Under the pieces are notes generated by a model. That model ran no database searches and was not told the origin of the DNA. It worked only from the letters and a program-made list of their open reading frames with translations. Shown piece by piece: positions 1-18,200 of a stretch of DNA of 64,000 bases. The position numbers and the translations under genes are program-made. Source of the stretch: Myxococcota bacterium. Lineage in GTDB: Bacteria > Myxococcota_A > Polyangia > Nannocystales > Nannocystaceae. Location of the stretch: NCBI GenBank assembly GCA_039028615.1, contig JBCCHT010000021.1, forward strand, positions 147,821 through 211,820. The letters are read 5' to 3'. How positions within the stretch are numbered: the first letter of the stretch is position 1; every line of letters begins with the position of its first letter.

Positions 1-1245
1 GAGCTGTTCGAGCCGGATCCCGCCGCCGTCGACCAGGGGTACGTGCCTCTACGTAGTGTGGCGCCCGAAATCGGTGCTCGCGTCGGCTTCTTCCCGGGAC
101 GGGTCGTGGGGCTGGAGCTGGAGGGGTCTTTGATGCCCACTCGCACGACGACCCGACGGTCCGCGCTGGTATGGGCAGTACGGGGTAACGTGCTCTTGCA
201 GCTGCCCACGTACTCCCTCACGCCCTTCGCCGTCGTCGGTCCGTCGCTGCTCGGGGTTGCATCGGGCGAAGGCGCGGTGGGGCACGACCAGGACTTCGGC
301 GTGCATTTCGGCGTGGGGCTCAGGGCCCAGCTCAACCGCCACCTCGGACTGCGGCTCGACATTCGCGACACGCTCACCTCCCGGCGAGGCCTGGACGCTG
401 GCTTCGCCCATACCCCCGAGGTCTTGCTGAGTGTGTCGGTCTCCCTGGGGCGCTCGCCCAGCCTGACCCCGCTGCCGACGTCCGGGCGCACGCGAGACGA
501 TGTCGATGGTGACGGCGTGCCGAACGAGGTCGATGCCTGCCCTTCGGTGGGCGGCTACGAGCAGTATCGTGGGTGCCTGGACGACCCCCTCGGCGACCGT
601 GACGGTGACGGCGTCGTCGATGCGGAGGACTTGTGTGTCGATACCCCGGGCGAACCAGACATCGGCTGTCCGTACATCCACGAGGCCTATGACATGGACG
701 GGGACGGCATCGACAACGAGTCCGATCGTTGTCCCTCGATCGCGGGGCTATCCCAGTACCAAGGCTGCCCGGATACCGATGGCGACGGAATCCACGACCT
801 CGACGACGAGTGCGCCGATCAGAGCGAGAACTACAACGGCTTCGCCGATGACGATGGCTGCCCCGACCAGCGACCGTTCGTTCTTCCGATCAAGCCGCTC
901 TTCTTCGATGACGTCAGCTTCGAGCGAGGCCGACACCGCATCGGCGCCGAGTCGTACCCCGTGCTGGACGATGCCGTGGAGAAGCTCGAGTCGTTCACCG
1001 AGGTCCGGCTGGAGATCCGAGGACACACCGACTCTGCGGGGCGTGAGGAGGACAATCTGCGGATTAGCCTCGAGCGAGCACAGGCGGTGAAGGACTACCT
1101 GGTCGAGCACGGCATCGAGCCCGAGCGGCTGGAGGTTCGCGGTGTCGGGTCGACTCAGCCGATCGCGAGAAACGACACCGACAGAGGGCGTGCGGCCAAT
1201 CGGCGGGTGGAGCTGAGGATCGTCTCGGCGTCGGATCGTCGGTGA
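1..1245 (+). CDS. OmpA-family outer-membrane protein with thrombospondin type-3-like Ca-binding repeats (5'-truncated by window edge)
   Basis: Frame is open from base 1. Beta-barrel-like N-terminus, repeated DxDGDG..D.CP motifs, and a C-terminal OmpA domain (IRGHTDS...NLRISLERAQAVKDYL...NRRVE). Confidence 0.9.
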   Translation, partial: ELFEPDPAAVDQGYVPLRSVAPEIGARVGFFPGRVVGLELEGSLMPTRTTTRRSALVWAVRGNVLLQLPTYSLTPFAVVGPSLLGVASGEGAVGHDQDFGVHFGVGLRAQLNRHLGLRLDIRDTLTSRRGLDAGFAHTPEVLLSVSVSLGRSPSLTPLPTSGRTRDDVDGDGVPNEVDACPSVGGYEQYRGCLDDPLGDRDGDGVVDAEDLCVDTPGEPDIGCPYIHEAYDMDGDGIDNESDRCPSIAGLSQYQGCPDTDGDGIHDLDDECADQSENYNGFADDDGCPDQRPFVLPIKPLFFDDVSFERGRHRIGAESYPVLDDAVEKLESFTEVRLEIRGHTDSAGREEDNLRISLERAQAVKDYLVEHGIEPERLEVRGVGSTQPIARNDTDRGRAANRRVELRIVSASDRR

Positions 1246-1766
1246 GGCGGGCACTGCCTGATCCTCAATCTATCGCATGAACTCGGCACGAGCGTTCGTT
1301 GCAATTTGGGCCGCGGCGTCGAGCAACGGAGGGTGACGACGATGGCCCCTACACCTACGCCGTGACTCGGGGTTGGCATGAAGGCGCACCCCCGAGGCTC
1401 GCGGTGAAACGACCACTCGCCTCGAGGACGAACCGGATCACAGTTCTGCGTAGGACGTGCTGTTTCATGTCACGTTGAAATCTACTCACATGCTCGTCGC
1501 TACATTCGCTCGCTTCCGATCGTACGAGTGGTCGTTGGATCGGTCTCGGGGCGTCGCGACGAACGTGAGACCGGCTCGGAACACGGTGAGAGGACGCGGC
1601 TTCGAGCGAGGTGTCCCGATCGAGTTCTGGCGTTCGGCCGGGTGTTGCTTGGGCTATCATTGGGTGGCTTGGGTCGGAGCTTGGTAGCCGTCGTCGCGCG
1701 TGCGCGAGTCGGAGTCCGGCGGAGCATGGATGCTTGGTCGAAGTTCGAGGCAGGAGGCAAACAACG

Positions 1767-4700
1767 GTGAGATCGGAACAGACTCGACATGGATGTACCG
1801 TCGTCGCGGTGAGCGGCACGCATGGGGTGGCGCTCGCGATGGGGTGGCCGCAGGGACAGACGCAGGACCTGCTGGGGTTCGCAATCTCGCGTCGTGATGG
1901 CGGGGGGGAGCCGACTTGGTTACCGGTGGTCGTGCAGTTCGAGGGTCGGCCGATCGAGACGGGCAAGCTCTACCCGTCGAACGAGTCGCCGATTCAGTCG
2001 ATGGTGTGGAACGACTTCGGGGTCTCGGACGACAAGACCAGCCACGGCCTGCCCCCGGACACCGAATTCACCTATTCGGTCGCACCCGTGCGCGGGACCC
2101 CGGACCAGTTCCAGGTGTGCGAGGACCAAGCGGTCGCGGTCACCGTGCGCACCGAGCCCGAGTACGCCGAGAAGGGAGCCTCGGTGTTCTTCAACCGCGG
2201 GCTGTCCGATTCGCAGGAATACGAGCGCCTATTCGGCGAAGGCCACGTGCCCGATCCAAACAAGCCCGAGGACGCCGAAGCGATGGCCTGGCTCGCGCGG
2301 GGGCTGGATGTCGCCATCATCAAGTTCATCGAAGAGGCCATCGACGACGAGAGCCTGACCCTCGACGCGGCCGTGTATCACCTGGACCATCAGGGGGTGA
2401 TCGATGCGCTGGCCAAGCTCGGCAAGCGTTGTCGGGTGTCGATGGACTGGGGCAGCGAGGAGGAGCACGCCGATCCTCCCAATACGGGCCCCAACCAGCC
2501 GGCCTACGATCGGCTGACGAAGGCGGGGGTGACGGTGCATCAACGCCGGCACGTCGCCATCAGCCACAACAAGTACATGCTGCTCAAGGGAGCCGACGGC
2601 AAGGGCAAGGCGATCCTCACTGGTTCGACCAACTTTACCAACGGAGGCATCAGCACGCAGTCCAACCAGAGCGTGATCGTGCGCGACCCCGAGGTCGCGG
2701 CGGTGTACCTCGAGGACTTCGAGCGCGTGCTGCAGGACGACAACAAGGGGCTGCGCGAGTTCAACGCGCAAGGGGAGGTCATCAGCGACTCTCTCGAGGT
2801 CTACTTTTCGCCGCACAGCGCCAGCGACACCCCCGATCTCGACCGCTTCAAGGCACTCGCTCGAGACGCCGAGTCGAGCATGCTGTTTTTGACCTTCCGA
2901 ATGACCTCGCACGAAGTGCTCTCGGAGATCTTCAGCCGCGGTGACTCGCAGGACGACGACCTGCTGGTCTTCGGCGTGGCCGACCGCGTCTATAAAGGCA
3001 ACGACGGCAGCGGCGACCGCCTGATCTACGACGAGTCCCTGGCGGGCGACCCCCGCGTGGTCTCGGCCGCGGACCCTCTCGACGACCTCTCGGAGGAACC
3101 GGGCGAGGACGTCCTGTACGACGAGCTCAAGCGCGAGGGCTACGACCCGCTGGTCCATCACAAGATCCTGCTGGCGGACTGGGACAGCCCCGAGTGCACG
3201 GTGGTGACGGGCTCGGCGAACTACTCCAACAACTCCAGCAAGAACAACGACGAGAACTCGCTGGTGATCCGCGGAGACCAGCGGCTGGCACAGCAGTACT
3301 TCGTGGAGTTCGCTCGGCTCTATACCCACTGGCGTGGTCGCTGGCTGGAGGAGCGCAACTACAAGCACGAGCATCAGGCGCTGACGCTCGCCGCTGACTC
3401 GAGCTGGACGAAGACCTGGTACTCGGGCAGTCGCAACACCGAGCTGCTGAAGTTGGCGCTCGGGGCGGAGGCATTCGCGCGGACGATGGAGCCCACACCA
3501 GCGGAAAAGGTCGCGCGGGAGGCCGCTCGCAAGGCCGCGGCGCCTCGGATGGAGCACGTCATCGTGCTGATGCTCGAAAACCGCTCCTTCGATCACATGA
3601 TGGGCTTCCTGCCCGGGGTCGAGGGCGTGCTGGGCGACGACGGCAAGGTCGATCCGGCTCGCTACAACTACGCCGATCCGCTCGACTCGACCTCCGCCAA
3701 GTACACGGTGGGCCAGGCGGAGTACTTCGCGATCCCTGCCGACGATCACAAAGACGAATACGGCGGGCCCTCGCACTCCTACCCGGCGGCGACCGAGCAG
3801 ATCTTCGGCCAGAAGTATCAGCAGTCGTCTCCACCGGGGAGCGAGCCGGCGGTGAACAACGGCTTCATCAAGAGCTACATCAAGGAGCTGAAGTTCTCGC
3901 AGAAGGTCGATGACCCCAAGGCGAAGCATGTCCGGGTGGCGATCGATGCGTTCTCGCCGACGCAGATGCCATCCATCAGCACGCTGGCCGAGGAGTTCTG
4001 CGTGTGTGACCACTGGTACTCCGAGGTCCCCGGGCCCACGGAACCGAATCGGCTCTTCACCCATGCGGCGACCTCCGAGGGGCTGACCCACAACGTGTGG
4101 GACCACGCGATCCAGTCGCGGACCATCCAGGAGAACTTGGCCGCCAAGGGCCACTCCTGGCGGTTCTACTACCAAGATCTGAGCGACTCGAATCAGTTCC
4201 CTGCGCTCAAGCGGGAGGTGGACCAGGTCCGGCCGTTCGAGAAGCTCTACGAGGACCTCCGAAGTGGGGATCTGCCGGCGTACTCGTTTCTGTGCCCCCG
4301 GTACTCGGACACCGACACGGAGTTCGCCAACTCGCAGCACGCGCCCTACGACGTGCGCTACGGCGAGCACCTCATCGCGGACGTGTACGAGGCGGTTCGC
4401 CGTAGCCCCAAGTGGAAGAACATCCTGCTCATCGTCACCTACGACGAGCACGGCGGGTTCTATGACCACGTCTACCCGCCGCGCGATGGCGTCCACAACC
4501 CGGATGGCCTGACTTCACCGACGGCCTACGATGCCGAGCTGAACAAGTCCAACCCCGACAAGTACGGCTACCTGATGGGGGACGACTACAAGTTCACCTT
4601 CCAGCGGCTGGGATGTCGGGTTCCCGCGGTGCTCATCTCACCGTGGATCGCCAAGGGCACGGTCGACTCCACTCGCTATCAGCACACCTCGATCGCGGCC

Positions 4701-5222
4701 ACGCTCAAGGAGGTCTACGAGCTGCCCGAGTTCCTGACGCGACGGGATGCGCAGGCCAACACGTTCACATCCGTACTCGCTCGAGCGACGGAAGCCCGCG
4801 ACGACGCGCCGCTCACCGTGCCGCGGCCGCCGTTGCCGGGGCAGGGGTCGAACGAGGCCGCGCCCGCTCCCGGGACGAAGCCGCTGGGGGTGCTGCAGCG
4901 AGGGGTCTACGCGACGCTGACTCACCTGGACGGTCACCCCGACTCCGGCAAGCCACCGCGCGTGCCCAAGACCCAGGCCGAGGCATCGGCGTACATCAAG
5001 GAGCGCTACGACGCCCACAACGCATTCCACCACGCGCTCGCGAAGAACGGCCGCTTCGAGGTCTACCAGGACAAGGCCGGGGAGCATCGGTGGCGCCTGC
5101 GGGACGGCGCCGGGCAGATCATCGCGAGCTCGGGCGAGGGCATGAAGACCAAGGCCGAGGTCGACGCCGAGATCGAGACCATCCGCAACCTGGCGCCGTC
5201 GGCCGACCGCGCAGACGTTTGA
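1767..5222 (+). CDS. Fusion protein: phospholipase D-like (two HKD-type motifs) + phosphoesterase/phospholipase C domain + C-terminal DUF1508/YegP-like domain
   Basis: PLD motifs HNKYMLLK..TGSTNFT and HHKILLAD..TGSANYS; phosphoesterase motifs EHVIVLMLENRSFDH and VTYDEHGGFYDHV; C-terminal FEVYQDKAGEHRWRL..GQIIASSGEG. Start moved from 1611 to the in-frame GTG at 1767, which follows a GGAGG RBS. Confidence 0.85.
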   Translation: MRSEQTRHGCTVVAVSGTHGVALAMGWPQGQTQDLLGFAISRRDGGGEPTWLPVVVQFEGRPIETGKLYPSNESPIQSMVWNDFGVSDDKTSHGLPPDTEFTYSVAPVRGTPDQFQVCEDQAVAVTVRTEPEYAEKGASVFFNRGLSDSQEYERLFGEGHVPDPNKPEDAEAMAWLARGLDVAIIKFIEEAIDDESLTLDAAVYHLDHQGVIDALAKLGKRCRVSMDWGSEEEHADPPNTGPNQPAYDRLTKAGVTVHQRRHVAISHNKYMLLKGADGKGKAILTGSTNFTNGGISTQSNQSVIVRDPEVAAVYLEDFERVLQDDNKGLREFNAQGEVISDSLEVYFSPHSASDTPDLDRFKALARDAESSMLFLTFRMTSHEVLSEIFSRGDSQDDDLLVFGVADRVYKGNDGSGDRLIYDESLAGDPRVVSAADPLDDLSEEPGEDVLYDELKREGYDPLVHHKILLADWDSPECTVVTGSANYSNNSSKNNDENSLVIRGDQRLAQQYFVEFARLYTHWRGRWLEERNYKHEHQALTLAADSSWTKTWYSGSRNTELLKLALGAEAFARTMEPTPAEKVAREAARKAAAPRMEHVIVLMLENRSFDHMMGFLPGVEGVLGDDGKVDPARYNYADPLDSTSAKYTVGQAEYFAIPADDHKDEYGGPSHSYPAATEQIFGQKYQQSSPPGSEPAVNNGFIKSYIKELKFSQKVDDPKAKHVRVAIDAFSPTQMPSISTLAEEFCVCDHWYSEVPGPTEPNRLFTHAATSEGLTHNVWDHAIQSRTIQENLAAKGHSWRFYYQDLSDSNQFPALKREVDQVRPFEKLYEDLRSGDLPAYSFLCPRYSDTDTEFANSQHAPYDVRYGEHLIADVYEAVRRSPKWKNILLIVTYDEHGGFYDHVYPPRDGVHNPDGLTSPTAYDAELNKSNPDKYGYLMGDDYKFTFQRLGCRVPAVLISPWIAKGTVDSTRYQHTSIAATLKEVYELPEFLTRRDAQANTFTSVLARATEARDDAPLTVPRPPLPGQGSNEAAPAPGTKPLGVLQRGVYATLTHLDGHPDSGKPPRVPKTQAEASAYIKERYDAHNAFHHALAKNGRFEVYQDKAGEHRWRLRDGAGQIIASSGEGMKTKAEVDAEIETIRNLAPSADRADV

Positions 5223-5234
5223 GGAGCAGTTTTC

Positions 5235-8200
5235 ATGACCGATCAGAATCAACCTGTGACCTTCCTCGACGGCGGCGGGCTCGACATCTCGAGCCAACAT
5301 GCCCAGGACCTGTCTGGAGAACGCGGCGAGCAGCGCTTGCTGGACCGCTATCGGCTGATGCAGCGCGGGCTGGTCTATCCCGCGCCCTACGCCCGTTTCG
5401 TGAGCTACTGGACGGCCGAGGGCAAGTCGATCACGCGCGCGGACATCACCGCCGTGATGAAGCAAGTGCGTGACGAAATCCACGAGCGCTTTGGCTCCAC
5501 CAACACGTCGGCCATCGTCGGCGTGAATTTCGATCTGTACCGGCAGTGGTGCGAAGACGATGGCGGCAGCATCCCGGCCGGTATGAAGCTGGCGTTCCCG
5601 GAGGACGGCAGCGAGCGTTCTTCGGTGTTCGACCGCTCGCGCGGGGTCTTTCAGGACTCCGAGGCCAGCCTGTGGTTCCACATCAAGTCGGACGAGCAGG
5701 CCAACCTCGAGGGGGTGAACGAGGTGGTGTCCAAGGCCCTCGGGGACTTGGTGGGGCGCAGCGTGTACCAGGACTGCAACCAACGGCTGCGGCCGGGGAG
5801 CGGGGACGCGGGGCGGGTGCTCGGCAAGCGCTTCGCCGAGAACCTCAACAACCCCACCGACCCGGTGACCATCGCTCACCACACGCTGGTGGGGCACGAC
5901 GACATCGAGCACCTGGGGGCGTCCTACGCCCTCGCTCAGCGCTTCTATATCAACTGGGAGCGCATCCACCAGATGGCGGAGGAGCAGGTCGAGGACATCA
6001 TCGGCCGCAACTCGAACGACGAATTCCTGCCGAACCGAGACACGCGGAGCCACATCAAGTCCGCTCGACAGCAGGACGCGCAGGGCAACACCACGTTCGT
6101 GATGCGGCTCGGGCTGCCGTTCGGAGCTTCGCCCTACGCTTCACGCCCCGACCTCGCGCTGGCCGGCAACAACCGCGGGGACGAGGCGGGAATCTACTTC
6201 GCCGGGTTCGCCAAGCGAGTGGACGTGTTCGAGACGATCATGAGCGCACAGATCGGCGACACGCCCGGCTTCATGAACGACCGGTTGTTCAACAACCTGC
6301 GCTCCGATCTGGGCGGGTTCTTCTACATCCCCAACCGTCGCGACCTGGGCCTCGTGCCCGAGCCGTGGGCGAAGGAGTCGGAGCGAGACTGGACGCGCTT
6401 CCCGGGCATCGACTGGTCGCGGCTGTCCCGTCACTTCACCGACAAGTCACCCAACGGGTGGATGTACTACAACCACAAGAACTATCTGTACGAGATGGCC
6501 ACGATGCCGACGGAGCGGCGGGCACAGCTGAACCCGCCCTCCACGCGCATCTTGACCTTGCTCATGGACATGTTCGCCCGCTGGCAGGACGCCTGGTACT
6601 TCGCCAAGGGCCAAGACGACATGGGGTCGCTATACGACCACATCGCCAGCGACCCCGACTTTGGCCCGGAGAAGGCCAAGGAGGTGCATGGGCTGTCCAT
6701 CATGGAGCGCAAGGGCTGGGCCACGCGCATGCAGTGCCGGCTCTACGCGACGGATGCCTATGGCTATCGAGGGCGGCGGAAGGTCGATGGGGTCGATCGC
6801 CCGGGCGCCGATACCTACCGGATCCACCCCGAGGAGATCATCGTGGGGGCGCTGCCGGATCTGAGCCTGGGGCAGGGCCGCTACTGCATGAAGTACCTGC
6901 GCGAGGAGGAGCGTCAGCCGGCGTTCTTCCGCGGCCTGACCGAGGCCTCCGGCGTGGGCCACGTGCTGCCCGACCATCAGAAGCTGGTCGACCTCGGGCT
7001 CGGCAGGCTCTTGGCCGAGATCGACGCCAAGGCCGAGTCGGTGGCCGATGACGACAAGCCGTTCTACCGTGCGTGCCGTTTGTCGCTCGAGGGCGTGCAG
7101 GACCACCTCGAACGCTACGCCGCGCTCGCCGACTCGATGGCGGCCGCGTGTGCGCACGGGCAGGCGGCGGAGCGCAACAACCTCGAGCAGATCGCGGCTC
7201 GCTGTCGGGCCCTACGCACCGACCAGCCATCGAGCATGGTCGAGGCGGCGCAGCTCATCTTCACCTATCACACGTGTCTGCACCTCAACGGTGAGCCGGT
7301 CTCGGTCGGGCGTCTCGACCAGTACCTCGGGCGCTTTCACGACGCGGACATCGAGGCGGGGCGCCTCACTCCCGAGGGCGCGCAGGAGATCATCGACGCG
7401 CTGTGGGTCAAGCTCTCGGAGAAGATCCTGCAGAACCGGATCTTCATTCATGACCACCAGCCCTACGGAAACCTGGCCATGGGTGGCGGCTCGGGGCCGT
7501 ACCCGCAGGGGGCGTCGCTCGGGCAGTGGATCATGCAGGTGACGGTCGGCGGCTGGGTTGCCGACGAGGAGAAGGTACCCACGCCCGCGTACAACGAGGT
7601 CACCCGGCTGTGCATTCGCGCCTCGGGCCGCCTGCCGCTGACGGCCCCGTGTCTGTCGCTACGGGTCAATGCCCACACCCCCGCCGACCTGCTCGAGGAG
7701 GCCGCACGCGCGGTCCTCTCTGGTGGCGCGCACCCGATCCTGCTGCACGACGACAAGATCGCGGCCGGGCTCGCGCAGTCGGGCGACGGGATCGGCGAGG
7801 GCGACCCGAACAACCCGACCGCGTCTACCCCGGTCGCGGCCAAGGCCCAGGGGCGCTGGGACAGCCAGGTCAGCATCGCCAGCGCGCGTAACTTCGCCAG
7901 CGACGGCTGCTACGAGCCGCTGTTCACCGGGCAGACCTGGTTTGCGCTGGGGGGCTTTTCAACCCTCAACCCCCTGGAGTGCGCGCTCAACCAGGGCCGT
8001 TCCTACGCGTCCGCGGGGGAGACCTTCCTGCACGGGCAGAACCTCTCGTTCCATACCCCCCCGGCGGAGCAGATCGAGAGCTTCGAGCAGCTCCTGGAGC
8101 TTTACTTCACGCACTTCCGACTGCTGTGGGCCAAGACCTTCGACGGCCAGATATCCACCTTCGACGCTCTGGCCGATATCTGCCCGGCGCCGCTGCTGTC

Positions 8201-9176
8201 GGTGCTGACGGACGACTGCCTGGCGAAGGGACAGGACATCTACGGGGGAGGGGCACGCTACAACGTCTACGCGCCGTGCTGGATCGGGCTCAGCACCACC
8301 ATCAACAGCCTGTGGAACATCAAGCGCATGGTGTTCGACGAGGACTCGATGGTCACTTCTCTGGCGGAGCTGCTCGAGTGCCTGATGTGCGACTGGGGCA
8401 ACAAGATGGTCGAGCCCATGGTCAGCTCGTTGATCGGGCCCAACCGCATCGCGGCCAAGGCGGTTCGGTTCCAGCGCCTGCGGGAGATTGCCTTGTCTAT
8501 GCCGCGCTACGGCGAGGGCAACCCCGAGGTGGACGAACTCGGTGATCGCATCGTGCACGAGGTCGCGAGGTTGACCGTCGACGTGCTGCGGAACCCGGCC
8601 GAGTCCACGGCCAAGAAGATGCTGGACTTCGCCAACCGGCACGGCACGCCGGAGCAGCCCTTCGGAGGCTTCCAGATCCACCCGGGCACGGGGACCTTCG
8701 AGAACTTCTCCGCGTTTGGTGTGGGCAGCGGGGCGTCGGCGGACGGACGGCGTCTCAACGCTCCCATCGCCAGCGACATGAGTGCGGCCCCGGCACGTTC
8801 CGATGCCCCGGCCGACCCCGCGTACGTGCCCTTCGATGCCGCTCTGGCCAGCAGCGAAGGCGATGGAGCCAGCGCGATGTGGGACGGAGCGCCCACCGAC
8901 TTCAACATCGACGAGACCTTTCCCGTGCAGACCCTCGCCGACATGTTCGGTCAGTTCGCCCGCGGCAAGGGCAGCAACATCCTGACGGTGACCGTCGCGT
9001 CGCGGGAGACCTTCACCGAGGCACCCAGCCACCCGGAGTCCTACGACCTACTCCGCGTCCGCATGGGAGGCTGGTCCGAGTACTTCACGTCGATGTTCCC
9101 CGTCAGTCAGGTCCAGCACCAGCGGCGGCCGGTCATGACTCCACCCCACGACGCCGCCGACACCAAGGAGGGATGA
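5235..9176 (+). CDS. DyP-type haem peroxidase domain fused to a PFL-like glycyl-radical enzyme domain
   Basis: First ~370 aa show DyP features (LWFHIKSD, RFAENLNNP, SHIK, MRLGLPFG, GIYFAGF, DRLF..GGFFYIP). The remainder shows GRE features (EEIIVG, SVGRLDQYL, QVTVGG, GCYEP, GASADGR, YDLLRVRMGGWSEYF). GAGGAG RBS upstream. Confidence 0.88.
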   Translation: MTDQNQPVTFLDGGGLDISSQHAQDLSGERGEQRLLDRYRLMQRGLVYPAPYARFVSYWTAEGKSITRADITAVMKQVRDEIHERFGSTNTSAIVGVNFDLYRQWCEDDGGSIPAGMKLAFPEDGSERSSVFDRSRGVFQDSEASLWFHIKSDEQANLEGVNEVVSKALGDLVGRSVYQDCNQRLRPGSGDAGRVLGKRFAENLNNPTDPVTIAHHTLVGHDDIEHLGASYALAQRFYINWERIHQMAEEQVEDIIGRNSNDEFLPNRDTRSHIKSARQQDAQGNTTFVMRLGLPFGASPYASRPDLALAGNNRGDEAGIYFAGFAKRVDVFETIMSAQIGDTPGFMNDRLFNNLRSDLGGFFYIPNRRDLGLVPEPWAKESERDWTRFPGIDWSRLSRHFTDKSPNGWMYYNHKNYLYEMATMPTERRAQLNPPSTRILTLLMDMFARWQDAWYFAKGQDDMGSLYDHIASDPDFGPEKAKEVHGLSIMERKGWATRMQCRLYATDAYGYRGRRKVDGVDRPGADTYRIHPEEIIVGALPDLSLGQGRYCMKYLREEERQPAFFRGLTEASGVGHVLPDHQKLVDLGLGRLLAEIDAKAESVADDDKPFYRACRLSLEGVQDHLERYAALADSMAAACAHGQAAERNNLEQIAARCRALRTDQPSSMVEAAQLIFTYHTCLHLNGEPVSVGRLDQYLGRFHDADIEAGRLTPEGAQEIIDALWVKLSEKILQNRIFIHDHQPYGNLAMGGGSGPYPQGASLGQWIMQVTVGGWVADEEKVPTPAYNEVTRLCIRASGRLPLTAPCLSLRVNAHTPADLLEEAARAVLSGGAHPILLHDDKIAAGLAQSGDGIGEGDPNNPTASTPVAAKAQGRWDSQVSIASARNFASDGCYEPLFTGQTWFALGGFSTLNPLECALNQGRSYASAGETFLHGQNLSFHTPPAEQIESFEQLLELYFTHFRLLWAKTFDGQISTFDALADICPAPLLSVLTDDCLAKGQDIYGGGARYNVYAPCWIGLSTTINSLWNIKRMVFDEDSMVTSLAELLECLMCDWGNKMVEPMVSSLIGPNRIAAKAVRFQRLREIALSMPRYGEGNPEVDELGDRIVHEVARLTVDVLRNPAESTAKKMLDFANRHGTPEQPFGGFQIHPGTGTFENFSAFGVGSGASADGRRLNAPIASDMSAAPARSDAPADPAYVPFDAALASSEGDGASAMWDGAPTDFNIDETFPVQTLADMFGQFARGKGSNILTVTVASRETFTEAPSHPESYDLLRVRMGGWSEYFTSMFPVSQVQHQRRPVMTPPHDAADTKEG

Positions 9177-9180
9177 GGCC

Positions 9181-11109
9181 ATGGAACGCGCATTCGATCG
9201 AATCCTCGTGATCATGTTCGAAAACCAGTATCGCGAGTACGTGATGGCCAACCCCTATATGCGTGGGCTCGCGCGGCAGGGGATCGACATGGCCAACTTT
9301 CACGGCGTGATGCATCCGTCGCAGACCAACTACATCGCCTCGGTGTCGGGCGAGCTGTGCAACGTCACCGACGACGACTCGCCGGGCCTGCTGCCGCAGC
9401 GCACCATCGTGGACCTCATCGAGGAGGCTCCCGGTGACCTACAGTGGAAGGCGTACATGGATGGCTATCGGCCGGCCAAGACGCCCTGGACCCCGGAGCT
9501 GGTGCCACAGGACGACTTCCCCTACGTCATCAAGCACAACCCGTTTTCATCGTACGGCAACATCGTGCGCAACGAGTTGCGGTGGAAGCGAATCGTGGAC
9601 CAGACGCAGTTCTTCCGCGACGTGCTCAACGGCGAGCTGCCCCACTACGCCTGGTTTACGCCAGACATGTGGAACGACGGGCACTACACCGACGGGACCC
9701 AGAGCGAGCCGGCGGAGCGCGCCCCGGCCCTGGTCGACCAGCTGGCGCGGTGGCTCGAGGAGTTCTTCGGGGCGCTCGACTTTCCTGGGCCCGACTCGAG
9801 GCTGCCCAAGGGCACCCTGGTCGTGGTGACCTTCGACGAGTCCGATTTCCTGAAGAAGTTCGATGCGGGCAAGAAGTACACCTACGACGGTCCGAACCAG
9901 GTCTATACCGTGCTGCTGGGCGACATGATCGAGCCCGGCGTGCAGGACGGGGCCTACAACCACTACAACTTGCTGCGCACGATCGAGCTGAACTTCGGGC
10001 TCGGCGACCTGGGCAAGAACGACGCGGGGGCGACTCCGCTGCGGTTTTTGTGGGGGCAGACCTTCGACTGGGAGCCGCCCGAGGATACGCCGATCCACAC
10101 CCATGGCCACGTCGCGAGCGCGGGCCTGGGGGATGTGCTGCACGTGGTCGTCCGTGATGAAGACGGCGGCTTGCGGCACACGACCTTCAACGGCCAGGCC
10201 TGGGGGGTGCCCCGACCGATCGGAGCTCGTTCGACCGGTCCGCTGTGCATGGCCGCGAGGGGCGACCAGCTGGTGCTGATGTTCGCGGGCGACAAGGGGC
10301 AGCTGTCGTCGTTGACCTACGACCTTCAGCACGGCTGGTCCTCCGAGCCCGAGGCCGTGGCCGTGGGGGAGAGCCGACACATCGCGTTGTGTGCCTTCGG
10401 AGGCGGCAGCGAGCTGATGGCCGTGTGGGTCGACGGGGAGGCGATCAAGTCGCGCCGCTACGACGGCTCGGGTTGGGCGCCCGACACGACCGACACCGGG
10501 CACACCACCCAAGGGGCGCTGGCCATCGGTGCGATCGGCCCTTCGCTGTTCTTGGTGTTCCAGAGCGAGGATGGGGGCCTGAGCGCGGTTACCTACAACA
10601 CCGCGGACTTCAACACGACGACCGTCGCCACCTCCAAGTACTCGGGACCGTGGGATGACACCGTGGCCAACCAGTGGTCGCCGAGCGCATTCGCGGTGGG
10701 GCGTTTCGGCGCCGCAGCGTTCGAAGGGACGCCGAAGGAACTCGAGCCCGTCACCGTGCCGGTCGAGTCCGGGGCCCCGGTGGTCATGGCCGCCCACGAC
10801 GGCACATTGCACCTCGCCCACGCGGGGGTGGCCAACCGTCAGCTGCTCACCGAGCGCTTCTCGGTGCCCGGTGTTCTCACGCCCAAGCTCCGCGTCTCGT
10901 ACAAGGCCACCGAGGACAAGACCACCAGCAACGGCTACGGCACGCTGGCCGAGGCCGGGTGGACGAGCTCGGAGCCCATCGACTTCAGCTGGGTCGGTGA
11001 AGGCGGGGCCGCCAGCATGGCGACCGTGGGCGACGAGCTGGTGCTGCTCGCACAGCCCGAGGCGGGCGGCCCGTTGCAGATCCTCGTGGCGGGCTACGAG
11101 CAAGAGTGA
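9181..11109 (+). CDS. Phosphoesterase (acid phosphatase/PLC family) with C-terminal beta-propeller-like repeat domain
   Basis: FDRILVIMFENQ, HPSQTNYIA, KHNPF, PDMWNDGH, VVTFDES, YNHYNLLRTIE; the C-terminal half has Trp/Gly-rich beta repeats. Starts 4 nt after the previous stop. Confidence 0.85.
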   Translation: MERAFDRILVIMFENQYREYVMANPYMRGLARQGIDMANFHGVMHPSQTNYIASVSGELCNVTDDDSPGLLPQRTIVDLIEEAPGDLQWKAYMDGYRPAKTPWTPELVPQDDFPYVIKHNPFSSYGNIVRNELRWKRIVDQTQFFRDVLNGELPHYAWFTPDMWNDGHYTDGTQSEPAERAPALVDQLARWLEEFFGALDFPGPDSRLPKGTLVVVTFDESDFLKKFDAGKKYTYDGPNQVYTVLLGDMIEPGVQDGAYNHYNLLRTIELNFGLGDLGKNDAGATPLRFLWGQTFDWEPPEDTPIHTHGHVASAGLGDVLHVVVRDEDGGLRHTTFNGQAWGVPRPIGARSTGPLCMAARGDQLVLMFAGDKGQLSSLTYDLQHGWSSEPEAVAVGESRHIALCAFGGGSELMAVWVDGEAIKSRRYDGSGWAPDTTDTGHTTQGALAIGAIGPSLFLVFQSEDGGLSAVTYNTADFNTTTVATSKYSGPWDDTVANQWSPSAFAVGRFGAAAFEGTPKELEPVTVPVESGAPVVMAAHDGTLHLAHAGVANRQLLTERFSVPGVLTPKLRVSYKATEDKTTSNGYGTLAEAGWTSSEPIDFSWVGEGGAASMATVGDELVLLAQPEAGGPLQILVAGYEQE

Positions 11110-11119
11110 CGGGCGGTGA

Positions 11120-11155
11120 CCGAAGCCGGGCGGACCGAGTCATGCCCGGCTTCGG
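11120..11155. terminator. GC-rich hairpin between convergent genes (possible bidirectional terminator)
   Basis: Perfect 12-bp inverted repeat CCGAAGCCGGGC / GCCCGGCTTCGG with a 12-nt loop; no U-tract. Confidence 0.55.
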
Positions 11156-11170
11156 CGGTTCATCGGCCGT

Positions 11171-14089
11171 TCAGCGAGCCGTGTCGCACGCCTCGAGCCA
11201 CTGCTCCACGTCTGCGATCTCATTGGACGCCCCAGGGCCGTATTCGACGTAGGCTTTGTGGGCGCGTCGGGCGAGGGCGCATGCCTCGTTCGAGGGGGAA
11301 GCCGTGCCGGTCATGACGCGGGCCTGAACGAACTGCACGCTGGCGAGAATGTCTGGGTGACCCTCGATCGCATCGGCGATTGCTGCGGCGTGGTCGGCGT
11401 GGTGCTTTGCCCGATCGAAGTCGCGCTGCTCGACCGCGACATCGGCGAGGCCCACCAGGGTCCGCGCCGTGGCGGGGTGCTCGGGACCCAGCGCCCATTG
11501 CTGGACATCAAACGCCCGCTGCAGGTGCTCTCGTGCGTCCTCTAGGCGCCCCATCTCGATGAGCAGGAGGCCGAGGTAGCAGTCGTCGTAGGCGACGAAG
11601 GGATGATTGGGGCCGAGGTGAGCCAGCTCGATCCGCCGGGCACTTCGGTAGGCCTGCTCGGCATCTTCGAATTTGTGCTGGGACATGAGGATATGGCCGA
11701 GGTTGGCGAGGATCGGAGCGAGCGTATGGTGCTCTCGCCCGTTTGCCCGCTCGACAAAGCGGAGCTTCTGGCGGGTGTGTGCCTCGGCCTCGGCATAGCG
11801 TCCCTGGAGCGCCTCGAGGTTGGCGAGGCGCCCCACGAGCCGCTCGGGAGCGAGCTCGGGGTCTGCAGAGAAACCCTCGGCCATCTCGATCGCCCGGCCA
11901 TAGGTGATCCGGGCGTCCTCGAGCTTGCTCTGGCAGAGCAGCACGTCGCCTAGCATGAGCTGGACCTTCGAGGCATCCGGTGACGTTGGGGACGGCAGCT
12001 GCCCGTGGATGTCTTCGGCCTCACGGAGCAGCCGTTCCGCGCCGACACAGTTCCCCTTCTGCTTGTCGATGCGGGCGAGCAAGAACAACGCGTTGGCGAC
12101 GGCGGGGTGATGAGGACCCAACGAATCCCGGCGGGCATCGAGGGCCCACGTGGCGTGTCCTGCGGCGGCCTCGAATCGGCCCTGCTCCATCAGCGTGGCG
12201 GCCAGGCCGTGGTGGGTGTTGCCGACGAGCTGGTGATGAGGCCCCAGTCGCGATGCTCGCTCGGTGAGCGCACGACGATGGAAGCTCTCCGCCTCGCGGT
12301 AGCGACCGTTGTCGTCGAGGATGGTGCCCAAGGTCTGATGGACCATGGCCTGCGCGAGCACGTCGTCACGACGTCGGGCTAGGGCCATCGCGCTGGAGGC
12401 CCACGTGATGCCGGCTTGGTGCTGGGACGCGACGAAGCCGAGCTCATGGGCGAGACGGATCGCACTCGAGAATGCCAGCCGGTCGTATCCGTGCTCGAGG
12501 GCGACGGGATAGGCACGCTCGAGGTCACCGCGAGCCCCGTCGAAGTCACCGAGGTCGGATCGCAGGGCGCCTCGTTGCACCCACGTCTCCACTTGCAGCT
12601 CGAGGTCCCCCGAGGCTCGTGCTCGCTCGGCGAGCGGTTCCAATCGTTCGAGCGCGTCGGCAAATCGCCCCACGTGCTGAAGCGCCTCCACGACGGCCAG
12701 CGAGTGTCGCACCTGAGTCGCGAGGACCGACGGCGGCTCACTCGAGCGCTCGTCCAGGTTTTCGCAGCGAGTGAGCGGCGGCAGGCCTTCGACCAGGGTG
12801 ACGGCCTCATCGACGATGCGATCGTCTGCATCAGCCAGGAGATCGACGGTCGCGGCGATGTGGGCCCGAAGGTCGCCGAGGCACCTCAGGGTGGGGTCAC
12901 TGACGGGCGCTTCGGCGAGCTGACCCTCGCAGGCCCCTCGGTAGCGGCGGGCCCACGCGCCCACGTATTGGCCGAGATCGGACTCGACCCGCTCCCACGT
13001 CTCGGAGGCGTAGGGACGGCTGGTGGCGAGCAGAGACTGCTGCACCTCGAGCTGTGTCTCCTCGCTCCACACCCCCTGCCGCAGGGCTCCCTCGTCGGGG
13101 CACGCCCCCCGCCCTTGGGCTCCGAACAGGGCACCCGCCGTCGCCATCGAGCCGAGCATGACGACCAGTGCGGCTCGTCGACGTCGGGAGCGTCGATGGC
13201 TGGCGTCGATCTCGAGCAGCAAGACCTCGAGCGAGGGCCATCGCGCGGCAGGATCTTCTCGGAGCCCTCGCCACAGCGCCCGGCGTAGCCACCGGGGCGC
13301 GGGGTGTCCCCACGGAGGCTCGGTGGGGGTGTTGCGATCGTCGTCGCCGAAGGGGAGCTTGCCGAACAGCGCCTCGTACAGGGATACGCAGAAGCTGAAC
13401 TGGTCGCTGCGATGGTCGGCGACCTGTCCGTGTCGCAGCTCGGGGGCGATGTAGCCTCGGGTCCCGACCACCACGCGGGTGGAGATGGTGGTCTCCGTCA
13501 GCGGGGAGCGGCCAGGATCGGCCTGGGCGAGGCCGAAGTCCAGGACTCGAACGCGCCCGTACTCGTCGCGGATGCAGTTGCTGGGCTTGAAGTCGCGATG
13601 CACCAGCCCGGCCGAGTGCGCGGCGGCGAGACCACGGCCCGCCTGCAGGTAGGCGTCGAGGCACGCGGACCAGTGGCGGCCCGGGCGTTGCCACTCGGCG
13701 AGCGTGGAGCCGGTGACCTGCTCCATCACGATGAACGGGGTCCCGTCGATCTCGCCCACTTCGTGGATCTGGACGACGTTGGGGTGAGACAGCTTGGCGA
13801 GCGCCTGCGCCTCGTGCATCAAGCGGCGGTCGTCGGCGTTTCGCAGGCGCTCTCGCAGGAGCTTGACCGCCACCGTTCGATCGAGCTTGGGGTCGTAGGC
13901 CTCGTAGACCTTGCCCATACCCCCTCGTCCGAGCTCGCGCTGGATGACGAAGCGGTCGATCTGCGTGCGGACGGGGCCTCCGTGGGACGGGAACAAGCGG
14001 GCTTTGATCGCGGAGCGCTGTCGCGTGCCGACCGGGTCGTCGATGGACACGCCGGCCAAGCACCGCTCGATGTCCTCGTCATGAAGCAT
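11171..14089 (-). CDS. Membrane Ser/Thr protein kinase with TPR repeats
   Basis: [38 protein letters not shown]; a TM segment; C-terminal TPR repeats. Confidence 0.92.
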
Positions 14090-14792
14090 CGTCGAGCTTC
14101 CGTACTCGAGCGGCCCACCCTTCGAGGGTCGTCATCGTGGAGTCCAGGGCCTGGCCGGATCGAGCCAAGCGCTCCATTTGCTGCTCGAGGACCTGCTTGG
14201 CGCGCAAGAGCCGGTTCTTCACGGTGGAGTCGGGAATCTCCAGCACTTCGGCGAGCTCTCGCAGCTTGAGCCCCTCCCAGTACCGCAGCTCGAGCAGGAC
14301 CTGCGTCTGCAGCGGCACGCTACGGAGCGCGGCGAGCATCATCCGCTTGCTCTCGTCGTCGGCGATGACGTCGCTCGGGGTCTGCCCCATGTCTTCCACC
14401 GACATGCTGCCGAGCGCGGCGTGGTTGCGCGGGCCGAAGGCTCGGCGGCATCGGGACAGCCAGATGTGGGTCGCAATTCCCAGCAAGAACGTGCGAAAGG
14501 ACGAGGTGCCGCGGAACCTCGCGGCCGACTCCACACACTCGAGGAAGGTGGTCTGGATGAGGTCTTCCCGCTCGCAGGGATCGAGGACCTTGTTGTGGAA
14601 GAAGCGCTCGGCGACGGGGTAATAGCGCTCGAACAGCGTTTCTCCGGCAGAGGAGGCGCCGCCCTGCCAGGCGGTCAAAAGTTCGGGGTCGGTGGGTGAG
14701 GGTCCCAAGTTCCTTCGACTCCAATCGACGCGGACCGTAGCCGATGGCCAATGGCCTGTCGACGTTCGATCACGCGCGCCTTTTTTTCGCAA
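14079..14792 (-). CDS. ECF RNA polymerase sigma-70 factor (start uncertain, may be further downstream)
   Basis: Region 2 EDLIQTTFL...SSFRTFLLGIA; region 4 LELRYWEGLKLRELAEVLEIPDSTVKNRLLRAK. Overlaps the kinase start. Confidence 0.9.
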   Translation of the reverse strand: MRKKGARDRTSTGHWPSATVRVDWSRRNLGPSPTDPELLTAWQGGASSAGETLFERYYPVAERFFHNKVLDPCEREDLIQTTFLECVESAARFRGTSSFRTFLLGIATHIWLSRCRRAFGPRNHAALGSMSVEDMGQTPSDVIADDESKRMMLAALRSVPLQTQVLLELRYWEGLKLRELAEVLEIPDSTVKNRLLRAKQVLEQQMERLARSGQALDSTMTTLEGWAARVRKLDDAS

Positions 14793-16647: not shown

Positions 16648-17577
16648 CTAGGCTCGTTGCTCTGCTCGGTACCGTCCGGGGCCGACGCCGACGTGTCGCC
16701 GGAAGGCTCGGTTGAACGAAGCCTCGGACCGGTACCCCACGCTGGCCGCGACCTCGGCCAGCGGCACGCCTCGCGAGCGCAGGGCCGCCTTCGCCTTCTC
16801 CATGCGCCACTGGGTCACGTACTGGATGGGCGTGACGCCTACCATGCGGTTGAACTGCTCGGAGAAGCTGGTGCGGCTCATCCCCGCGCTCTTGGCCAGT
16901 CGTGCCACCGTCCAGTTCTCCGACGGTCGCTCGTGAATCTTCGCCAGTGCTCGCCCCAGGTGCGGATCACGGATCGCCGCCACCGGCCCGGCGACGTCTC
17001 CTCGCCGCTCGACCCACGCGCGGAGCACCTGGATGAACAGGATCTCGGCCATCCGAGAGGTCACCGCGTGGGCGCCAGGGCGGTCGACTCGGACCTCGTC
17101 CCCCAAAAAGCGCATGGCGTCGTCGAGCCAGCGGTAGTCGGAGCGGGCCCGGGCGGGAAAGTGAAGCACGGGGGGCAGCGCGTCGAGCAGCGGGTGCAAG
17201 GTGCCTCGCTCGAATGCGAAGTGGCCACAGACGAGCATGGTGAACTCACCCCCGCCGCCATGGACGAAAGGGGTCTCGCCCTCGAACTGGGCGTCTCGCA
17301 GGGCGTCATCGAGGTCCACGTAGTGCTCCGTGCTCGAGTCCGCGATGGTGTGCGCGCTCCCATGGGGCACGACGAGCAGGTCGCCACGGTTCAACGTGAT
17401 GGGCTCGGCTTCTGATCCGGCGACCCGGACCCGGCAGGAGCCCTCGAGGCCGATATGGAACCGAGCGGCATTGCCGAACTCGGGGACGGCGAGCCCGAAT
17501 GGGGCACTGAACTCCCCGCGGAAGTACAGCATGCCGGTCAGCTCGAAGGCATCCAGGATGTCGCTGAGTACGTCCAT
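16648..17577 (-). CDS. AraC-family transcriptional regulator with N-terminal cupin domain (RclR-like)
   Basis: MDVLSDIL start; WTVARLAKSAGMSRTSF and VGYRSEASFNRAFRR HTH motifs. Confidence 0.9.
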   Translation of the reverse strand: MDVLSDILDAFELTGMLYFRGEFSAPFGLAVPEFGNAARFHIGLEGSCRVRVAGSEAEPITLNRGDLLVVPHGSAHTIADSSTEHYVDLDDALRDAQFEGETPFVHGGGGEFTMLVCGHFAFERGTLHPLLDALPPVLHFPARARSDYRWLDDAMRFLGDEVRVDRPGAHAVTSRMAEILFIQVLRAWVERRGDVAGPVAAIRDPHLGRALAKIHERPSENWTVARLAKSAGMSRTSFSEQFNRMVGVTPIQYVTQWRMEKAKAALRSRGVPLAEVAASVGYRSEASFNRAFRRHVGVGPGRYRAEQRA

Positions 17578-17644
17578 CACCTCGGACCCCCGTGTGCGCC
17601 GAGGCAGAGTCGACCGCGATCGCTCTGCCTCGCGCGCGGGTCGT

Positions 17645-17998
17645 TCAGGGGTTGTAGTAGCGCTCGTGGACCACGACCCCGCCGCTCCACTGGCGACGAA
17701 TGACCTCGTTCCACACGATCGGGTTGCCGTCGCCCCCGACCATGTCGAAGGTCCACTCCGACAGGGTGACGCCATCGCCGACGCCAGAGCTGTGCAGCGT
17801 GGCGCCGTTGAACTTGGACAAGCTGCCCAAAAAGCCCTCTAGGCGGGTCTTGTTGGCCGCTCGTCCTTCGGTGGGGGCGGCGGTGCCTTCCTGCATCACG
17901 ACGTTCTTGCAGTAGAATTCGTCGAGGGCACCGAGCACGTCGCCGGCTTGAATGCGTGCATTGAGGGCGGCCTCGCGATCTTCGATTTTCGTACTCAT
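17645..17998 (-). CDS. SnoaL-like / NTF2-fold protein
   Basis: MSTKIEDREAALN..ALDEFY..VVMQE..EW..RQWSGGVVVHERYYNP; about 117 aa. Confidence 0.75.
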   Translation of the reverse strand: MSTKIEDREAALNARIQAGDVLGALDEFYCKNVVMQEGTAAPTEGRAANKTRLEGFLGSLSKFNGATLHSSGVGDGVTLSEWTFDMVGGDGNPIVWNEVIRRQWSGGVVVHERYYNP

Positions 17999-18200
17999 TC
18001 GACTGTTCCTCGTTCGGCTGCGTTGTCGTTGCAGCCGAGAGGAACACTGACACCGCGGATCGGGACGGACCATGCTCGAGCGTCCGCGGCCATTGCTCCA
18101 GCGTACGAGTCGAGGCGTTCGCGACGGACGACCGGTGGGGGGCGGGGGGCTCGCAGTGGCGCACGATGCCCATGGTGCCGCCGCTTCCTCGCGGCCGACC

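Follow-up and report, generated by a model that had tools for sequence, protein, structure and literature searches.

A haem peroxidase joined to a glycyl-radical enzyme in a Myxococcota genome without a recognised activase gene

How does a glycyl-radical enzyme (GRE) come by its radical when no activating enzyme can be recognised in the genome that encodes it? The question is raised by a 64,000-nucleotide stretch of DNA from a Myxococcota bacterium (assembly GCA_039028615.1, contig JBCCHT010000021.1), here called the window, in which a single gene joins a dye-decolorizing-type haem peroxidase (DyP) to a complete GRE. As set out in the available portion of PMC7077986, GREs carry a radical on a glycine that is passed to a cysteine, and every characterised member has a cognate activase. 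Gene content and phylogeny support well the view that the fusion is independent of such an activase, and we lean, by somewhat more than an even chance, toward a radical enzyme that activates itself: its haem domain would do the work of the radical S-adenosylmethionine (SAM) activase and supply the Cys/Gly radical from peroxide.

One gene with two active sites

The gene, its two domains and the residues considered here are placed as follows, with conservation counted over 138 family rows.

5235..9176, forward strand: the DyP-GRE fusion gene, 1313 aa, with no export signal recognisable by eye
5340..6344, forward strand: class P DyP haem peroxidase domain, about residues 36-370, from family models and solved-structure matches
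6522..9143, forward strand: complete GRE fold, about residues 430-1303, from the model of the relative P0134
5838..5840, forward strand: Glu202, the distal acid (the Asp of GxxDG in other DyPs), E or D in 133/138 rows
6051..6053, forward strand: His273, the probable proximal haem ligand, 136/138 rows, the remaining 2 having no DyP part
6105..6107, forward strand: Arg291, the probable distal arginine, 133/138 rows
6582..6596, forward strand: Trp450 and Trp454, early in the GRE domain and candidates for a relay, each in 138/138 rows
6960..6962, forward strand: His576, at the GHV His of diol and glycerol dehydratases (Asp in CutC), 138/138 rows
7293..7295, forward strand: Glu687, at the position of 5i2a His283, E or D in 137/138 rows
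7902..7916, forward strand: Cys loop D890-G-C892-Y-E894, with D890, C892 and E894 each in 138/138 rows
9054..9074, forward strand: Gly loop R1274-V-R-M-G-G1279-W1280, with G1279 and W1280 in 134/138 rows

The open reading frame is preceded by a ribosome-binding-like GAGGAG and has no internal stop. A preliminary description of the window had read it as a single frame with an intact haem site and an intact GRE site, and translation and family models agree; His273, Arg291, Cys892 and Gly1279 all lie where that description put them, and the distal acid Glu202, which it overlooked, can be added. On the DyP side, TIGR01413 (105.6 bits, cut-off 100.5) and PF20628 (47.6, cut-off 20) are both passed, Dyp_perox_C covers residues 205-367, and the proximal His, distal acid and distal Arg expected of DyPs are present. 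On the GRE side, the PFL-like domain spans residues 553-1122 (E 1.8e-99) and Gly_radical (PF01228) matches residues 1208-1285 at 20.6 bits, just below its cut-off of 22.2; the CxE Cys loop and the C-terminal Gly loop are both in place. Alignment to the diol dehydratase 5i2a sets Cys892 and Glu894 on its Cys loop (Cys438/Glu440), RVRMGGW on RVAGY and His576 on His166, the 5i2a numbers being counted along the printed alignment. Conservation of the Cys and Gly across homologues, which the same description had made a condition of its proposal, is complete for C892 and fails for G1279 (and W1280) in just four rows, whose sequences stop short of, or diverge at, the C-terminus.

Misassembly, an objection raised in advance, can be excluded. 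Both domains are present at 96-100% coverage in all 120 listed homologues, the best 120 of 346, some of them in closed chromosomes, and the fusion is therefore real. No sigma-70-type promoter was found in window positions 1200-11300, where terminator-like sites were near chance. A class P DyP followed by a C-terminal PFL-like domain is the architecture of a fusion family already published, and on that ground the gene joins the family as a new member; as the preliminary description had allowed, the domain pair is already in databases and in print, as DyP-PFL or DyP subclass P2 in the accessible parts of PMC5041501 and PMC9719856.

The protein folded was the relative P0134 (1192 aa, 37% identical to the 1313-aa protein, with the same key residues). 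Its AlphaFold2 model, with both domains (mean pLDDT 93.6, pTM 0.94), runs from a complete class P DyP (10-310) over some 40 linker residues to a complete GRE (350-1191). The first part matches class P DyPs (Z ~32, rmsd 2.4, 288 aligned) and the second whole GRE chains (Z 33-35, rmsd 2.7-2.8, ~710 aligned), with Z 35 and rmsd 2.7 over 713 aligned for 9rcp. Because pTM is so high over a chain that is one quarter DyP, the model suggests that the two domains are held in a fixed arrangement. Two-chain docking of the P0134 DyP (10-304) with a cut GRE (482-1186), which lacks the GRE N-terminal helices, scored 0.00 and speaks neither for nor against contact between the two; a single-sequence fold of residues 36-1235 reached a pLDDT of 34.5 and was not used. 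Mutual information (211 rows, effective 89) was dominated by noise, with inter-domain pairs making up 38 of the top 100 vs 37% expected, and thus no excess.

Activase genes and the history of the fusion

The preliminary description had recognised no radical-SAM protein in the window, and indeed none of 7 CxxxCxxC matches over six frames lies in one. The host genome (12.3 Mb, 96.7% complete) has 66 radical-SAM matches (PF04055), with 0 on the contig bearing the fusion. A genome-wide search for a PflA-like activase, also called for in that description, found nothing over cut-off with TIGR02494, TIGR02493 or TIGR02491, and a hidden Markov model (HMM) of sister-lineage activases reached at best 39.7 bits, vs 236-314 for four true activases. 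Within the recognised families, then, the genome has no cognate activase for the fusion, which is the sole GRE found in it. The host had been thought probably aerobic, and a haem-copper oxidase subunit I is present, while PFL and class III ribonucleotide reductase (RNR) were not found.

Two weaker radical-SAM candidates were examined and rejected. An NrdG-like orphan (G000:C1:464443-465204, locus L007; 84.8 bits) does not track the fusion, since it occurs in 22/24 family relatives without a GRE match and fusion matches occur in 0/40 relatives; among carriers of the fusion it was found, as a type, in only 7/50. A second weak PflA match is an AmmeMemoRadiSam enzyme (627 bits), and weak matches in four carriers (G029, G033, G035 and G050) are read likewise from matching length and model range. 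With no match in 40 relatives, the fusion itself looks horizontally acquired. Separately, 21 of the 66 radical-SAM matches lie within ~88 kb (G000:C17:21792-109715), perhaps a large peptide-modification cluster.

A genome scan for the fusion gave 217 matches at 78 loci; the carriers at 50 of these loci, with isolates favoured, were searched for four activase families. No activase-like gene was found in 36, among them six with chromosome-level records (G002, G005, G009, G022, G029 and G034); seven have the NrdG-like orphan type alone, and seven have a true or broken activase. In four of this last group the activase stands beside a canonical PFL, in G001 it is NrdG2 and in G026 a broken PflA. 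Other GRE types did not show in 46/50 carriers. No significance test was applied, because the genomes are related in groups. At the loci themselves, the activase HMM scored at least 50 bits at 1/81 fusion loci vs 57/79 unfused GRE loci (44/66 for unfused loci outside the HMM training set; unfused loci are shorter than fusion loci), and the sole positive fusion locus has a PflA adjoining a true PFL. Homologues do not always come with a cognate activase; it was constant co-occurrence that the preliminary description had named as fatal to its proposal. Two further observations concern carriers: a Saccharothrix genome in which PFL was not found has an intact PflA-type activase (L091:4688-5431), and Vitiosangium and Archangium carry a second, shorter fusion paralogue of ~1215 aa (L089:8093-11749, L090:7288-10929).

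Unfused relatives were drawn from a search of 50%-identity representatives, two trees and metagenome loci. In both trees the class P fusions sit beside a clade that holds both unfused GREs and fusions of a second set. The nearest unfused clade is uncharacterised and bears the motifs DGCWE and RVGG[WF] (L096-L105, L116 and L118; P0172, P0187, P0190 and P0195; the L098 copy is divided between two frames). At 9/11 of its metagenome loci the gene immediately upstream encodes an activase, in the position where the fusions have their DyP; the contigs of the remaining two begin inside the GRE gene. All four of its activases that were tested score above the TIGR02494 cut-off, so a cognate activase would not have escaped the genome searches. 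In 401 Flavobacteriales genomes the ten that matched comprised four unfused GREs, five fusions (two called by frame length only) and one lone DyP; an activase adjoins 4/4 unfused GREs, and none over cut-off was found genome-wide for the five fusions. The Trp after the radical Gly is present in 68/68 fused vs 21/41 unfused rows. As candidates for a class P GRE without a DyP, 28 shorter matches were set aside, as none spans more than 74% of the GRE region and they resemble fragments; homologue lengths of 722-1100 were sampled through two homologue searches only. P0138, an 860-aa GRE without a DyP part on a 146 kb contig, takes a basal position among the class P fusions and is possibly a true unfused form or a split gene.

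The second set of fusions carries a different peroxidase. P0168 and P0169 contain a DyP_N domain, and the best solved matches of P0169 are Anabaena 5c2i (E 1.5e-76) and DyP2 4g2c, unlike those of the host protein, which are class P DyPs. This class V architecture is represented by 13 clusters (P0169, P0168 and P0288-P0298; loci L095 and L185:7388-11326), from sources that include Flavobacterium, Chryseobacterium and a Deltaproteobacteria metagenome assembly by name, and the GxxDG Asp, the His, the Arg, the Cys and GGW are invariant in 13/13. In the tree its GRE half falls with the unfused clade that has activases (SH-aLRT 100). A single clade for all fusions is rejected (p-AU 7.6e-6) in a quick search under LG+G4 with 28 rows, a test chosen after an earlier tree had been seen. 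In G115, the one class V genome tested, no activase over cut-off was found. Two independent fusions are the simplest reading of these trees, in which case an upstream activase gene was probably replaced twice by an N-terminal DyP; a single fusion followed by DyP swap and loss is the alternative history.

The fusion family extends to eukaryotes, with members named from a choanoflagellate, three amoebozoans and a mussel. Patiria miniata has five full-length and two partial loci (longest contig 8.3 Mb), and one fusion is annotated in Hydractinia symbiolongicarpus on a 40 Mb contig; the haem, Cys and Gly residues are kept in the annotated proteins of both. The Patiria copies form a tandem set, 98-99.8% identical, and could in part be assembly duplicates. 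The Mytilus gene model is broken at the Gly loop. The animal fusions are P0130, P0333, P0334, P0337, P0338, P0339 and P0143, and animals are not known to have GRE activases. Extra domains occur in two other eukaryotic members, P0123 and P0146: C2 (choanoflagellate) and DUF2278 (Pelomyxa).

How the radical might be made

At the level of sequence, both sites are intact and conserved together, no activase is recognised, and the GRE has, on the simplest reading, been joined to a peroxidase in two separate fusions. As the carriers mostly have no activase and the closest unfused relatives keep theirs, the peroxidase half probably does the switching. The preliminary description had proposed a haem domain that either generates the radical from H2O2 or shields it, in an activase-independent or O2-tolerant GRE. 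Its activase-independent part is well supported by gene content and tree, and generation of the radical from H2O2 stays at the level of a proposal. Shielding alone fits poorly, because a shield leaves the source of the radical unexplained where no activase is encoded.

Judging from the conserved residues, the DyP domain would bind haem and react with H2O2 or an organic peroxide to form compound I. The oxidising equivalent might then hop through Trp and Tyr side chains, as is known for DyPs, whose compounds pass holes to Trp/Tyr at ~1 V (accessible part of PMC10646903); W241, Y364, Y412, W450, W454, W765, Y893 and W1280 could serve. Trp450 and Trp454 are candidates from their conservation, though Trp450 is replaced by Arg in the class V fusions and in unfused clade A, and Trp454 is common to all of these. 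The equivalent would end on Cys892, with Gly1279 acting as a transient or re-chargeable store. The thiyl radical could then act on a small polar substrate, starting a 1,2-elimination or a C-H activation of a related kind, since His576, Cys892 and Glu894 form an eliminase-type site, together with Asp890 and Glu687. A radical quenched by O2 could be remade by the next peroxide. In favour of this route also stand the Trp fixed after the radical Gly in fused forms, the confident two-domain model, the intact animal copies and the peroxide induction of the fungal gene.

Several points weigh against self-activation by peroxide. The carriers are not independent, many being Pedobacter or Acinetobacter and related in groups, and 14 of the 50 have an activase (seven, two of them broken) or an NrdG-like gene (seven); one, G042, has an intact PflA and no PFL was found in it. 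Copies occur in Mastigamoeba and Pelomyxa, which are anaerobes, and in aerobes cleavage of the glycyl radical by O2 carries a cost. Within the Gly loop, Arg1276, presumably the residue that activases recognise, is kept in fused and unfused forms alike, and conservation of Gly1279 may be purely steric. The structural model is that of a relative at 37% identity. Peroxide induction of the gene, known from a fungus, fits a plain antioxidant role equally well. The fungus in question, Chaetomium, is also reported to have a putative PFL activase elsewhere in its genome (PMC5041501, in the part available).

Another reading is that the barrel never holds a protein radical and that the GRE half has become a two-electron thiol enzyme or a binding module. 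Cys892 would then be a nucleophile or a peroxide-reactive thiol, or the barrel would hold the substrate or product of the peroxidase, and the unneeded activase would have been lost. This would account for activase loss as well as self-activation does, and the long branch leading to the class P fusions (0.92) means that function may have shifted; steric conservation of the Gly and the peroxide induction of the fungal gene agree with it. We nevertheless hold it unlikely, as the eliminase set (His576, Cys892, Glu894 and R-x-R-x-G-G-W) stays constant, or almost constant, across a range from bacteria to animals, and two DyP classes joined to sister GREs would not be expected of a loose partnership. 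The published protection model, in which the glycyl radical comes from a separate radical-SAM protein and the DyP does no more than remove H2O2 (available text of PMC9719856), seems to us distinctly improbable. It has behind it the rule for characterised GREs (PMC7077986, in part), the kept Arg1276, the putative fungal activase and the many radical-SAM proteins of the host, including the NrdG-like one. With no standard activase present, it needs an unrecognised or moonlighting radical-SAM protein, such as that orphan or a housekeeping enzyme; the orphan is commoner in relatives without a GRE match than in carriers, and the fusion is patchy across phyla without a linked radical-SAM gene. A peroxidase, moreover, removes H2O2 and not the O2 that cleaves the radical.

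It is also conceivable, and we think very improbable, that the first three steps above lead to a primed dioxygenase, like cyclooxygenase or the fungal psi-producing oxygenases, in which a substrate radical meets O2 as co-substrate and the resulting hydroperoxide is reduced or recycled by the haem domain. In its favour, aerobes make up most of the named carriers, and phospholipase- or phosphoesterase-type neighbours occur at some loci (see below). A peroxidase-fused oxygenase has a precedent in a P450 fusion (PMC9719856, accessible part). Against it, the site residues match eliminases that act on small polar molecules, nothing points to a lipid channel, and copies occur in anaerobic amoebae. 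Self-activation by the haem domain remains the reading that we prefer. A broader claim, to which we give a little less than an even chance, is that this is the first glycyl/thiyl radical enzyme that does without SAM, an Fe-S activase or anoxia, its radical being made from peroxide by a haem peroxidase domain, and that it arose twice, from two DyP classes on sister GREs, so that an enzyme of anaerobes could spread through aerobic bacteria, fungi and protists and reach animals (sea star and hydroid) as a working GRE.

Neighbouring genes and known systems

The fusion gene stands between two close neighbours.

1611..5222 (likely start 1839), forward strand: upstream gene of a probable operon, with two PLD-like domains, a phosphoesterase and DUF1508; 12 bp gap to the fusion
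9181..11109, forward strand: downstream gene, a phosphoesterase joined to a PLL-like beta-propeller; 4 bp gap

The upstream product is itself a three-part fusion of the two PLD-like domains, the phosphoesterase and DUF1508. Full-length orthologues of the downstream gene (46-49%) flank the fusion at 5/80 other loci, with one partial at a contig end. A fixed operon was rejected, as neighbours vary and the downstream phosphoesterase occurs in 2/5 congeners where the fusion was not found. Phospholipase- or phosphoesterase-type neighbours at 12/80 other loci give a weak, uncontrolled hint of a head-group or phosphoester-derived substrate. Neighbours linked to peroxide were seen at single loci, with no control: a LodA lysine oxidase (L078:16505-18589), a 742-aa haem peroxidase directly upstream (L023:7185-9413) and an FMN-dependent dehydrogenase (L083:1385-3763). 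At six Acinetobacter loci (L013, L024, L027, L030, L032 and L034) the fusion stands alone at one site, just 5´ of an 859-aa gene that we take to be clpB. Elsewhere in the window, positions 43-1245 encode an OmpA-family protein (Pfam), and 11171-14792 and 16648-18073 hold, by eye, a kinase-TPR gene, an ECF-sigma-like gene and an AraC-like gene.

The fusion family has been described with little said of its function. The accessible text of PMC5041501 calls the significance of Chaetomium DyP-PFL 'elusive' and reports induction of 3-fold by H2O2 and 18.5-fold by peracetic acid; that of PMC9719856 names subclass P2, notes Glu as its distal acid and guesses at a role for the DyP in guarding PFL and its activase against H2O2. 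We found neither a functional study nor a proposal of haem-driven activation in the literature covered, which leaves out supplements and most subscription papers. The fusion shares with P2 its architecture, a class P DyP with a distal Glu and a spread over bacteria and fungi. It differs in that those papers, as far as their available text goes, assume a PFL-type domain with a separate activase, whereas here the GRE half is eliminase-like and an activase is missing from most carriers; in the available parts of both accounts neither the class V fusion nor any animal copy appears. Taken together, the lack of an activase, a second class of DyP and the copies in animals make this a GRE variant without a described counterpart in the searchable literature.

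If self-activation is correct, a GRE started by peroxide would overturn the rule of the radical-SAM activase (PMC7077986, available portion) and of dependence on anoxia, and would offer biocatalysis an air-compatible route to GRE chemistry. It would also give a function to a published family that has none, and would place GRE-type chemistry in animals.

Among individual GREs, an adjacent Cys-Cys pair is the hallmark of pyruvate formate-lyase, which is rejected here on the single Cys of GCYE and on TIGR01255 (29.4 vs 994.2 bits). Choline TMA-lyase CutC is rejected as well (116.6 vs 1050 bits), His576 aligning with the Asp of GGDTCP in 9f3w, and hydroxyproline dehydratase HypD is rejected by score (135.7 vs 1100 bits). 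His576, Glu687 and Glu894 may correspond to the HypD acid-base set His160/Asp278/Glu436 given in the available part of PMC7077986. With the GRE eliminases in general (diol and glycerol dehydratases 5i2a and 1r8w, CutC, HypD and PflD/YbiW) the fusion shares the whole fold, the CxE loop, the Gly loop and the GHV His. It is, however, only 20-24% identical to them, falls far below every NCBIfam cut-off, has GGW instead of AGY, and adds Asp890, Glu687 and an N-terminal haem domain, with no activase. The unfused DGCWE / RVGG[WF] clade (P0172, L099, L100, L105 and kin) is closer, having the D-G-C-aromatic-E and G-G loops in common with the fusion, but has a TIGR02494 activase directly upstream in place of a DyP.

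In class I RNR and in cyclooxygenase or the psi-producing oxygenases, an oxidised metal or haem centre gives rise to a radical on the protein, which then passes to a catalytic residue; class I RNR corresponds, on the aerobic side, to the glycyl-radical class III RNR. A haem-started GRE would parallel the step from class III to class I. The comparison is one of how the enzymes might work: the fusion would resemble these systems in its relay from an oxidised centre to a catalytic residue, and differs from them in its oxidant domain, its substrate and the Gly loop that it has kept.

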